Assembly (NCBI GenBank): GCA_001773955.1
Contig: MEYH01000048.1
Location: 13,787-58,078, forward strand
From: Candidatus Sediminicultor quintus
GTDB lineage: Bacteria; Atribacterota; Phoenicimicrobiia; Phoenicimicrobiales; Phoenicimicrobiaceae
DNA length: 44,292 nucleotides
Direction: 5' to 3'
The notes under the pieces are model-generated. The model worked only from the letters and a program-made list of their open reading frames with translations, ran no database searches and was not told the origin of the DNA. The translations under genes were made by a program, and so were the position numbers. Below are positions 15,769-17,833 of this stretch, piece by piece. Numbering within the stretch: the stretch's first letter is position 1; each line of letters starts with the position of its first letter.

Positions 15769-17808
15769 ATGGTTCATAATTCTGATAACCAGGTTAATAT
15801 TATAAAAAAAATAGAAGAATTACGAGAAAAAATTAGATATCATAATTATCGCTATTATGTTTTGGATGATCCAACTGTTTCAGATACTGAATACGATCGA
15901 TTGATGAGGGATTTAATAGAATTAGAAGAAAGGTACCCCCGATATATTACCCCTTATTCTCCCACTCAGAGAGTGGGAATAGAGCCAGTTTCGGAATTTA
16001 CCACAGTAAAACATATTACTCCTATGTTAAGTCTGGCGAATGCCTTTTCGACTGAAGAGCTGCGTGCTTTTAACCAGAGGATAAAAAAACTAATTCCTCA
16101 GCATAAATTAGAATATGTGGTAGAGTTAAAGATTGATGGACTGGCTGTTGCTTTAGTCTATGAAAATAGTATCTTTATAAGGGGAGCTACTCGTGGAGAT
16201 GGGGTGACCGGAGAGGAAATTACCTCAAATCTTAAAACCATAAAAACTATTCCCTTAAAATTATTCGGTGAAGACATACTTCCGCATTTCGAAGTTTATG
16301 GTGAAGTATATATGAAGAAGAGTGATTTTAAGAAGTTAAATGAAGAAAGAATTAAAAAGGGAGAGAGTCTATTTGCTAATCCGCGAAATGCAGCAGCCGG
16401 TTCAGTAAGGCAGCTTGACCCTCGAATCACCGCTCAAAGACATTTAGATACTTTTATCTATAGAGCCACTTTTCCTAAGGGGAATAACTTCGATGCCCAT
16501 ATGGAAGTTTTGAATTACTTGAAAAAGATTGGATTTAAAGTAAACCCCCACATCAAACTGTGTCAAGATATTGAGGAAGCTATAAATTACTGCCAGAAAT
16601 GGATAGAAAAGAAAGAAGAATTAGATTTAGATTACGAGATTGACGGGATGGTAATCAAGGTTAATTCCTTAAAGATGAGAGAGGAATTGGGATCAACTAC
16701 TCGAAGTCCCCGCTGGGCTATTGCCTATAAATTTCCAGCCCAACAAATGACCACAAAAGTTCAGGATATTATCGTTCAGGTAGGGAGAACAGGAGCACTC
16801 ACCCCGGTGGCTATACTTGATCCGGTTAGGATATCCGGTTCAGTGGTGCAGAGAGCAACTCTGCATAATGAAGATGAAATTAGAAGGAAAGATGTTCGAA
16901 TTGGAGATATTGTCTTAATTCAAAAAGCCGGAGAAGTTATTCCGGAAGTAGTAAAAGTAATAAAAGGGAAGAGAACTGGCAAGGAGATGGAATTTATTAT
17001 GCCCAGTCAATGCCCCATATGTGGGGCAAAGGTGTTCAGGCTGGAAGGTGAAGTGGTCTCTCGATGTAATAGCCTTACTTGTCCAGCCCAAATAAAGGAA
17101 AGAATCAGACATTTTGCCTCTCGAAATGCTATGGATATTGAGGGGTTGGGCCCGGCAATAATCGATCAATTAGTAGAAAAAGATCTCATTAAAGATATTT
17201 CTAATTTATATTTTTTAAAAAGAAGTGATTTGATCTCTCTTGAGCGAATGGGTGAGAAATCTGTGGATAATTTATTAGATGCTATTGAAAAGAGTAAGAA
17301 AAAATCTTTGGCTAACTTAATCTATGGTTTGGGGATACGTTACGTGGGAGTTCATACCTCAGAAGTTATTACCAGATACTACTCTACTTTAGATAAATTT
17401 AATGAAGCCAGATTAGAAGAATTAATCGAGATCAATGAAATTGGTCCCAAGATTGCAGAAAGCATAATTCTTTTCTTTAAAGAAAAGGAAAATTTAGCTA
17501 TTATTGAAAGATTAAGAAGTGCTGGTTTGAATTTTAGTCAGGAAGAAGAGAAAACGAGAAAGGAAAAAGTAGCGCGGATATTAGCCGGAAAACAATTTGT
17601 CTTAACCGGCACTCTAAAGGATTTTACCCGTACTCAAGCTAAAGAAATAATCATTGAATTGGGAGGCCGAGTTACTGACAGCGTAAGCAAAAAAACAGAT
17701 TATGTGGTCGCCGGTGAAGATCCGGGCTCTAAATATCAAAAAGCCCAAAAATTAGGTGTGCCTATAATTAACGAAGAGGAATTTAAAAAAATATTAACTA
17801 GTGAATAG
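15769..17808 (+). CDS. ligA: NAD-dependent DNA ligase
   Basis: Adenylation motif ELKIDGLAV, Zn finger CPICGAKV...C..C, HhH repeats, C-terminal BRCT (FVLTGTL). Confidence 0.96.
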
Positions 17809-17833
17809 TGAATAGTCGTTAGTCGTTAGCTGT
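17799..17833 (+). repeat. TAGTGAA/TAGTCGT array beginning inside the last codons of ligA
   Basis: TAGTGAA TAGTGAA TAGTCGT TAGTCGT TAGCTGT. The ligA stop TAG (17806-17808) is the TAG of unit 2. Confidence 0.95.

Follow-up and report, generated by a model that had tools for sequence, protein, structure and literature searches.

The intergenic spacers of Candidatus Sediminicultor quintus, a member of the Atribacterota, carry tandem arrays of heptamers such as TAGTGAA and TAGTCGT that obey an orientation rule close to absolute, lying in the sense of the gene after stop codons and as the reverse complement ahead of starts. The arrays were studied in a stretch of 44,292 nucleotides (contig MEYH01000048.1 of assembly GCA_001773955.1, positions 13,787 to 58,078; hereafter the window) and in a wider survey set that comprises the window and 99 low-GC loci, 585 kb in total, mostly from metagenome-assembled genomes (MAGs) of Atribacterota together with one single-cell genome. 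They are real, polar and discrete, they are nested within spacers, they turn over rapidly and they have repeatedly captured the stop codons of adjoining genes. With moderate confidence, we interpret them as the outer arms of short non-coding modules, akin to foldback elements or miniature inverted-repeat transposable elements (MITEs), that would be colonising gene junctions in Atribacterota of the JS1 type.

The window has a GC content of ~34% and a strong positive GC skew, and almost all of its genes lie on the plus strand; the gene names used here (guaA, purA, purB, pcrA, PPIase, ABC exporter, ligA, gatCAB, RNase H fusion, hflKC, fba, pfk, dnaE, polA, coaE, ade, uvrB and uvrA) were confirmed by both NCBIfam and Pfam. 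The sequence TAGTNNNTAGTNNNTAGT is matched 28 times, against 0.01 matches expected from shuffles, and all 28 arrays lie in spacers, in sense orientation after stops and as reverse complements before starts. Period 7 outranks every other period in the window, and each long spacer is a mosaic with period-7 blocks right after the stop, their reverse complements right before the Shine-Dalgarno (SD) site, and a middle made of purine- or pyrimidine-rich linkers, GC-rich GTAG-hairpins and MITE-like palindromes.

Orientation of the arrays across 585 kb

In the main counts of polarity, an array is a TAGT-phased heptamer array. The survey set contains 161 of these, 124 of which could be classified: 69 adjoin a stop in sense orientation, at a median gap of 2 nt, and 49 adjoin a start in antisense orientation, at a median of 26 nt, which places them at the SD. 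Next to starts, a single sense array stands against the 49 antisense ones. The preliminary description of this DNA had proposed the sense-after-stop and antisense-before-start rule for the window, and 118 of the 124 classifiable arrays comply with it, their orientation relative to stops and starts being far from random (6 rule-breakers; binomial p = 4e-28). On inspection, the six exceptions and four arrays that seemed to lie inside genes were mostly traced to uncalled short open reading frames (ORFs), over-extended starts and a tRNA cluster.

Period-7 arrays of all kinds number 309 in the survey set, against at most 57 for any other period, and only 10 of them fall in called genes, several of these being ORF over-extensions. 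The nine common heptamer families are all polar, with a combined ratio of inward to outward arrays of 136:9 (TAGTGAA 66:4, TCGTATA 12:3, TAGTATA 14:0, TCGTATC 11:1, TAGCGTA 9:0, TAGTCGT 6:1, TCGCGTA 8:0, TCGAGTA 6:0 and GAGCGTA 4:0). When the intergenic period-7 arrays of any kind (n=204) are read inward, 166 contain GT (the shared core xxGTxxx) and 25 contain AC, and the octamer families AATTCACC and TTAGTTGG/TTAACCAG undergo the same left/right inversion as the heptamers. Plus-reading matches lie in the left half of the spacer in 94.5% of cases and minus-reading matches in the right half in 93.4%. Stated without regard to the strand of the genes, the rule is that, on both sides, the TAG-strand runs into the spacer from the functional unit that flanks it, so that each spacer has an inverted, bookend-like symmetry.

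A replication-strand cause was rejected, as both orientations are found in one and the same spacer, and equally so for genes on the plus and minus strands. A composition effect, in the form of a C-rich, G-poor, Rho utilization (rut)-like exit sequence for Rho, did not survive comparison with the octamer family AATTCACC, whose skew is opposite but whose architecture is the same. Stop content was likewise discarded as the cause of polarity, given that the families without stops (TCGTATA, TCGTATC, TCGCGTA and TCGAGTA) are as polar as those that bear them.

This last observation bears on a function that had been suggested for the arrays at the outset, namely that they exist to halt read-through or frameshifted ribosomes right after genes. 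The arithmetic behind the suggestion is sound, as TAG recurs with a 7-nt register in the outermost arms and all three frames are therefore closed within three units. The next stop is indeed closer with arrays than without them, at a median distance per frame of 11-13 nt versus 19-23 nt, and lies more than 60 nt away in 2-5% of cases versus 18-25%; moreover, on the stop side of spacers, 41 of 59 stop-rich arrays are found within 15 nt of a stop, compared with 7 of 44 stop-less ones. A selected, all-frame translational insulation is nonetheless quite unlikely to be what organises the arrays, for the stop-less families keep the same polarity, the TAG-rich families form the outermost layer not only on the stop side of spacers but also on the start side, where their stops are on the wrong strand, orthologous gene ends carry different arrays or none, and spacers devoid of arrays already terminate translation within ~7 codons. 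The all-frame stops are best read as a by-product, or as a filter of what is tolerated, rather than as the organising principle.

Spacer architecture, turnover and origin of the arrays

The commonest array is a discrete element of 31 nt, E1, consisting of the units TAGTCGT, TAGTGAA, TAGTGAA and TAGTCGT followed by TAG. It is present in 99 unique contexts whose flanks are unrelated, similarity being lost sharply on both sides, and its outer flank is A/T-rich with the consensus TAAAT. An exact 21-mer, TAGTGAATAGTGAATAGTCGT, was retrieved from more than 104 public genome stretches, overwhelmingly Atribacterota MAGs, and from the single-cell genome SCGC AAA255-G05, and no copy was found in the viral contigs searched for it; the closest named LigA is that of 'Candidatus Atribacteria bacterium RBG_16_35_8', at 99% identity.

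Spacers are laid out like nested parentheses: the arms on the left read inward, and those on the right are their complements. Between the two halves of one spacer, 378 9-mers are shared in inverted and 114 in direct orientation, whereas halves taken from different spacers, as a control, share 207 versus 85. Arms co-occur within one spacer (odds ratio 3.6, p = 1e-5; odds ratio 2.2 in a second count), whereas no association exists between the array on the start side and the one on the stop side of a given gene or operon (odds ratio 0.94), from which it follows that the spacer, and not the gene, is the unit to which arms belong. A cassette view, in which a gene would be bracketed by inverted arms, was rejected on that ground. 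The lack of association, together with the housekeeping nature of the flanking genes, also argues against integron cassettes, and attC itself was rejected in view of its core sites, RYYYAAC...GTTRRRY, since the arm ends GTTAGTG/GTTAGTC place T at an R position; no search for intI was made.

A subset of spacers presents terminal inverted repeats around a short non-coding core, namely 41113-41355 and 35758-35943 in the window and survey loci L108, L085, L050 and L032. Arms made of octamer units (AATTTACC; TTAGTTAG/TTAACTGG; AATTGGTC) are found at 38786-38821, ~2838-2876 and 41271-41302 of the window and in L085, L050, L086, L108 and L109, and those of L108/L109 and L085/L050 belong to complete two-armed elements that fill the interval from stop to SD exactly. 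Geometries of this sort are compatible with a function in RNA, whereby UAGUGAA arrays in 3' untranslated regions would pair with UUCACUA arrays in the following leader and loop out the spacer, the resulting long intercistronic stem acting in RNase III-type processing, in blocking exonucleases or in translational coupling; in another version, the arrays would be a platform for an RNA-binding protein. We regard such a role as conceivable but doubtful. It is favoured by the predicted folds of the uvrB-uvrA and polA-coaE spacers, where the arrays make up the closing stem from stop to SD (25 bp, z = -5.9, and ~29 bp with a one-unit bulge, z = -4.5) and the stems begin 0-3 nt past the stop, by the matching of the rare unit TAGTCTT with AAGACTA in the two polA-coaE arms, by the two-armed elements of L108, L085 and L050, and by the tight spacing of arrays to stops and SDs. 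However, strong complementarity between outer arms is confined to 13 of ~240 co-directional spacers, two of the 13 being uvrB-uvrA and polA-coaE, and most arms are single. The outer 50-nt arms are otherwise only slightly more complementary within than between spacers, and a general RNA closing stem was accordingly rejected. Mismatches in paired arms display no G-U bias toward the sense strand (12 vs 12), arms are swapped between close relatives, and the Rfam search returned tRNA as its only match.

The position at which right arms end is also at odds with a function restricted to leaders. At operon junctions the right arm stops ~5 nt ahead of the SD, but in L067 it lies ~20 nt ahead of a promoter region (TTGATA-17-TAGAAT) shared with L031 by conservation, and in L091 a tRNA cluster follows it. 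Within a 6.7-kb stretch of the window, the best sigma-70-like match (ATGACA-17-TATAAT, 22383-22411) falls between the array at 22338-22371 and the ATG of the RNase H fusion gene. The right arm therefore abuts whichever functional unit comes next and, with an antisense arm upstream of promoters in several cases, need not be transcribed as part of a leader. The same observations tell against a platform resembling that of the trp RNA-binding attenuation protein (TRAP), an analogy that had been drawn in the preliminary description and that finds no support: TRAP targets consist of 9-11 GAG/UAG triplets spaced 2-3 nt apart in a 5' leader, where they control an antiterminator or SD, whereas the arrays have a 4-nt spacing (period 7) and typically 3-6 units, their UAG-sense copies lie 3' of stops, transcribed leaders carry the complement (CUA), and the arms turn over fast.

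Turnover was assessed in 77 pairs of orthologous spacers, whose flanking proteins are mostly 80-97% identical. Spacer lengths can differ as widely as 3 vs 120 nt, 0 vs 289 nt and 96 vs 398 nt, and the outer 35 nt of orthologous spacers are 71-77% identical versus 89% for the coding flanks, on which basis a special conservation of the outer arms was rejected. The same gene end may bear different array families, or none, in relatives. Not only do unit number and order vary between orthologs, but whole modules are present or absent at orthologous sites (L003 vs L057, L031 vs L067, L038/L076 vs L044, and the ligA-gatC spacers). Variation in unit number and order would be expected of long simple sequence repeats (LSSRs) that arise in situ by replication slippage and have their polarity imposed later by selection, and heptanucleotides are the commonest class of long simple sequence repeats in many prokaryotes, according to the summary of Mrazek 2007 given in PMC4679880. 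We consider this origin highly improbable, for the units of E1 keep one order (CGT-GAA-GAA-CGT) and its borders are sharp at all 99 unrelated sites, composite arms of at least 70 nt recur on both spacer sides, and it is entire modules that come and go at orthologous junctions.

An array is found within -22 to +15 nt of the gene end in 89 of 456 gene 3' ends, and in 31 of these 89 the stop codon itself lies inside the array, at offsets of -3, -10 and -17, where it is the TAG of the first, second or third unit; two thirds of the stop-adjacent arrays come after an intact TAA or TGA. Pairs of empty and filled orthologous junctions show that the embedded stops are derived. Where L057 reads GGA GCT TAA, L003 reads GGC TAG, this TAG being part of unit 1 of E1; conversely, TAT AAA TAA ATT ATG in L003 corresponds in L057 to ATT AGT CGT TAG and then a 120-nt mosaic. 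The stop TAG of polA serves as unit 1 of an array both in the window and in L007, the family being TAGTGAA in the former and TAGCGTA in the latter. A similar picture emerges for LigA, of which 120 orthologs share the sequence ...EEFKK(I/L) and then diverge into TSE*, GIA*, NNRS*/TKNS*, K(I/T/N)VS* and other tails. In the DNA of four of them, it is arms of the TAGTGAA, TAGCGTA and TTAGTTGG/TTAGTTAC types that encode the tails together with the TAG stops, and in the window the gene ends in ACT AGT GAA TAG (17797-17808), the codons for T-S-E being supplied by the repeat. Because LigA orthologs have at least three different repeat-encoded tails with TAG stops, the embedded stops are secondary captures, and the alignment of orthologous gene ends, both here and in L003 vs L057, indicates that arrays have created new stops.

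Capture of a gene end is seen with another type of element as well. Two near-identical MITEs of ~155 nt (26455-26609 and 36561-36716) have the core TCATTGCGAG...CTCGCAATGA, and related cores are present at ~2979-3045 and 17866-17959. Both copies are bounded by C-TA followed by GTAGAGCG on one side and by CGCTnTAC followed by TA-G on the other, the signature of insertion into CTAG with TA duplication (IS630/mariner-like), and the copy at 36561-36716 encodes the last codons of coaE together with its TAA stop (36578-36580).

The interpretation that we favour for the arrays, as outer arms of foldback- or MITE-like modules, would bring these features together as follows. Left arms have the inward sequence T(A/C)G(T/C)NNN, with octamers instead in certain families, right arms are their reverse complements, and the core between them holds purine- or pyrimidine-rich linkers, GTAG hairpins like those of repetitive extragenic palindromic (REP) sequences, and MITEs. 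Such modules would fill the only space that a compact genome tolerates, from the stop codon to the SD or promoter, with new material accruing mostly inside older arms. With arms that are mutually reverse complementary and a mosaic that occupies the spacer as far as the nearest stop codon, SD or promoter, the sense-after-stop and antisense-before-start rule would follow for genes on either strand. By landing on the final codons of a gene, or recombining into them, an arm would provide a tolerated short new tail and a TAG stop at little cost. The TAG-supplying ends may then act as a filter on survival at tight junctions, which may explain the success of TAG-rich arms as the outermost layer. The modules might spread as selfish or neutral DNA by transposition, by template switching at hairpins or by ectopic conversion on TAG/TAA microhomology, and effects on expression, through intercistronic hairpins and extra stops, would be by-products; by analogy with REP sequences, the hairpins probably have side effects on mRNA stability. 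Among the early suggestions for these arrays, that of a footprint left by cassettes inserting between the stop and the next ribosome-binding site has gained the best support, from the empty and filled junctions, from the rebuilt spacers and from the unrelated flanks of E1 at 99 sites.

Several observations weigh against this interpretation. No target-site duplication can be clearly read at the E1 junctions of the empty and filled pairs, the CTAG/TA signature being found only at the separate TCATTGCGAG MITE, and no autonomous partner, whether a transposase flanked by arms or a gene bracketed by outward-facing arms, was seen in the 585 kb of loci. Single arms are common (55 spacers have a stop-side arm only, 28 a start-side arm only and 42 both), strongly complementary outer arms are as scarce as stated above (~5%), and at least one apparently single-armed insertion lies flush with a stop in the correct polarity, which is hard to reconcile with a strictly two-armed element. 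The loci were picked for carrying the element, and their genes were called with a crude long-ORF method. Finally, the near-invariance of E1 at 99 sites, in several MAGs and phyla, could instead reflect a sequence-specific function or recognition.

Recognition at the DNA level would turn the heptamer register into a series of oriented binding sites for a protein, for instance a recombinase, an HUH/RAYT-like nuclease (RAYT, REP-associated tyrosine transposase) or a nucleoid or boundary protein, that marks or builds the limits of spacers. A symmetry blind to gene strand, arms that abut promoters as well as SDs, the presence of the nearly invariant 31-mer in contigs of several phyla, the core xxGTxxx common to the families and the REP-like GTAG hairpins adjoining the arms are all consistent with it. 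We nevertheless deem it unlikely, in that no candidate protein was found, that many unlike unit families behave alike, contrary to what a single sequence-specific binder would produce, and that orthologous sites turn over fast.

Arrays and other elements along the window

Every coordinate given in the preliminary description checks out, including those of the stops embedded in the arrays of ligA, polA, uvrA and a 75-aa ORF, of the sense arrays past pcrA, uvrB, ade and hflC, and of the antisense arrays ahead of the purB, coaE and uvrA SDs and upstream of the RNase H fusion gene; the list of embedded stops is here extended by that of the PPIase gene. The reverse-complement arrays of purB, coaE and uvrA end 16-23 nt ahead of the start codons, that is, at the SD.

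From left to right, a short plus-strand TAGTCGC TAGTAAA block (1186-1199) lies 3 nt past the guaA TGA. The purA-purB spacer has two minus-strand right arms, an inner one that is the reverse complement of the TAGCGTA/GAGCGTA family (3161-3191) and an outer one, ACTAACGACTATTCACTA...ACGACTA (3199-3231), which ends 5 nt ahead of the purB SD AAGAGGTG and is conserved in L004. A complete plus-strand E1 (12419-12449) begins at the base right after the pcrA TAA and is conserved in the ortholog L017; a TAGTATT/GCGTATC/GAGTATT array on the minus strand (12549-12572) runs in the sense of the minus-strand PPIase gene, whose stop TAG (12570-12572) is unit 1. The plus-strand ligA array (17799-17829) comprises two TAGTGAA units, two TAGTCGT units and TAG, the stop (17806-17808) being unit 2. 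Two E1-type arrays on the minus strand follow: the right arm at 22338-22371, ~100 nt upstream of the RNase H fusion gene, and the array at 24297-24330, in the sense of the minus-strand hflC and 2 nt past its TAA. Past the pfk stop, by 11 nt, a GAGTATA/TAGTATC array (28711-28741, plus strand) has its complement arm at 28859-28889.

The plus-strand array at 32690-32734 is made of three TAGTATA and then three TCGTATA units, and the stop of the 75-aa ORF (32690-32692) is its unit 1; the ORF itself (32465-32692) has no Pfam or NCBIfam match and stands as a candidate gene. A TCGTATA/TCGTATG array on the minus strand (32882-32912) reads inward from the 3' end of a tRNA-Leu, in the sense of the tRNA. 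This tRNA-Leu(caa) occupies 32918-33006 on the minus strand and is abutted by the long polA ORF starting at GTG 33013; as the PolA profile begins only at residue 32, the true start of polA is near 33106.

The left arm of the polA-coaE spacer (35758-35795, plus strand), of which the polA stop (35758-35760) is unit 1, contains the rare unit TAGTCTT, and the right arm (35919-35943, minus strand), ahead of the coaE SD CTAATTCAGGAG, carries the matching AAGACTA, the two pairing in the predicted fold. A right arm of the TCGTATA/TCGTTTG family (37000-37044, minus strand) ends 8 nt ahead of the ade start, and a plus-strand TAGTGAA-TAGTATA-TCGTATA array (38835-38858) lies 60 nt past the ade stop, behind the octamer block at 38786-38821, with a complement arm at 38991-39035. 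Between uvrB and uvrA, the left arm (41113-41136, plus strand) begins 3 nt past the uvrB TAA and the right arm (41323-41355, minus strand) ends at the uvrA SD CTAATTCAGAGGAG, forming with 41113-41137 the 25-bp predicted stem described above. The plus-strand array after uvrA (44195-44254) has the stop TAG (44195-44197) as unit 1 and continues with TAGTCGT/TAGTGAA units and then TAGTATA/TCGTATC.

Spacer cores also hold GC-rich hairpins, GTAGGGGC(A/G)...GCCCCTAC, which are similar to REP sequences and their paired form (REPINs) and are sometimes arranged as inverted doublets (12452-12528). In the window they are located at ~12452-12475, 12502-12528, 17832-17859, 18330-18355, 21334-21386, 24264-24286, 35813-35833, 38890-38917 and 44277 to the end. 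These hairpins fit the palindrome of ~20-40 nt with a GTAG foot that defines REP, REPIN and bacterial interspersed mosaic element (BIME) components, and they are a component separate from the heptamer arrays, which are not self-complementary. Nor do the arrays have the features of intrinsic terminators, a GC-rich stem-loop with a U tract behind it, the terminator-like matches of a simple scan being located on the REP-like hairpins.

A further dispersed element, TTTTGAATTTTGAATTATGGTTTTTCG...AAATTTTTAGC, is found at ~1371-1425, 3073-3110 and 36820-36930, with an inverted copy at ~24135-24195; the copy at 36820 is interrupted by a GC-rich palindrome, and a similar TTTGAATTTTGA block follows a TAGTGAA array in L081, a contig labelled Nitrospira. 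At 4819-5591, two neighbouring S-adenosylmethionine decarboxylase (AdoMet_dc) paralogs lie upstream of spermidine synthase, in an operon whose short junctions are free of repeat modules. Outside the window, a 470-nt 'spacer' bounded by E1 arms in L055 (~4365-4834) holds an uncalled small ORF, whose product we take, by eye, to resemble the four-helix-bundle protein of the 23S rRNA intervening-sequence type.

Related repeats and biological significance

The Atribacterota arrays are a variation on known intergenic heptamer repeats and mosaic elements. REP, BIME and REPIN sequences of Proteobacteria are extragenic, hairpin-forming mosaics of alternating short motifs, located after stops and between cistrons, that vary among strains and have incidental effects on mRNA stability. 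The spacers described here share with them the mosaic architecture between cistrons and the REP-type GTAG-hairpins of the cores; they differ in that the heptamer arms are non-palindromic and have no GTAG-hairpin of their own, and in that wall-to-wall occupancy and strict nesting exceed those of classical BIMEs. Eukaryotic FB foldback elements have inverted termini made of short tandem repeats, and both these and MITEs with long terminal inverted repeats resemble the present modules in having two inverted tandem-unit arms, a variable core, many non-coding copies, presence or absence between relatives, and nesting. The heptamer modules, in contrast, have shown neither an autonomous partner nor a target-site duplication, frequently consist of single arms, and are limited to the interval from stop to SD or promoter. 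Nostoc punctiforme reportedly has dispersed elements of 21-27 nt with tandem heptamers that occur in nested hairpin contexts within spacers; the sequences and the phylum are different, and we know of no report of the stop/start polarity rule or of stop capture for them.

Among the short tandemly repeated repetitive (STRR) sequences of cyanobacteria, STRR1 (CCCCAGT) and STRR3 (CAACAGT) are said to contain AGT. LSSRs (Mrazek 2007) and STRR heptamers (Mazel 1990) have in common with the arrays a 7-nt period, a non-coding location and a patchy phylogenetic distribution, but they are described as homogeneous tandem arrays, devoid of a stop/start orientation rule and of a dispersed element of fixed composition. 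Closer still are the TAACTGA direct repeats of marine Beggiatoaceae, some Cyanobacteria and Bacteroidetes (MacGregor 2015, PMC4679880), which are almost all intergenic and strongly oriented to the adjacent gene, which overlap the end of the upstream ORF in some cases and whose sets are split by related heptamers (PMC4679880). Of the 170 sets in Table 1 of that study, 147 point toward a start and 12 toward a stop (PMC4679880), and a comparison made in this analysis indicates that they follow the same geometric rule as the Atribacterota arrays; on the other strand the unit reads TCAGTTA, whose CAGT core fits the xxGTxxx class. There, however, one dominant unit lies mostly 1 nt upstream of starts and replaces the SD, stop-side sets are few, and neither a nested inverted architecture nor stop capture was described, whereas the present repeats comprise many unit families and a discrete 31-nt element, fill the spacer from both ends and leave the SD in place.

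Arrays of the present type are also found in contigs assigned to other phyla. Stop-side and start-side E1-type arms occur in L032 (Syntrophorhabdaceae; a 102-kb contig with 46% GC), which has one stop-side and one SD-side arm as in Atribacterota, and in L015 (Pirellulales); TAGTGAA/TAGTCGT arrays are present in L081 (Nitrospira japonica), L061 (a Niabella hibiscisoli isolate) and L082 (67% GC). These occurrences reflect either horizontal spread or mis-binning. On a more speculative note, the xxGTxxx arms might be the working register of a single cross-phylum system that targets gene junctions, be it a mobile or templated element or its protein. Such a system would install polar, 7-nt-phased arms directly at ORF ends and in front of SDs or promoters and, by supplying stops, might be able to invade even overlapping junctions. 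Should that tentative idea be correct, the Atribacterota arrays, the TAACTGA repeats of Beggiatoaceae and the STRR heptamers of cyanobacteria would be one phenomenon under one orientation rule.

For decades, heptamer repeats of bacteria have been listed with no mechanism to account for them, and a near-absolute rule that spans many families and both sides of the spacer, in which the AGT-strand runs from the edge of the gene into the spacer, offers a concrete handle on them. The findings also illustrate that spacer repeats routinely write the last codons and the stop of housekeeping proteins, LigA having several tails among close relatives, a circumstance that matters for annotation, for the alignment of orthologs and for the reading of C-terminal variation in MAGs. 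The near-identical spacer modules probably add to the fragmented assemblies of these genomes. If it is true that the arms form intercistronic stems or protein-binding sites, they would punctuate operons throughout the genome, in a phylum whose transcription and translation may be unusually organised.

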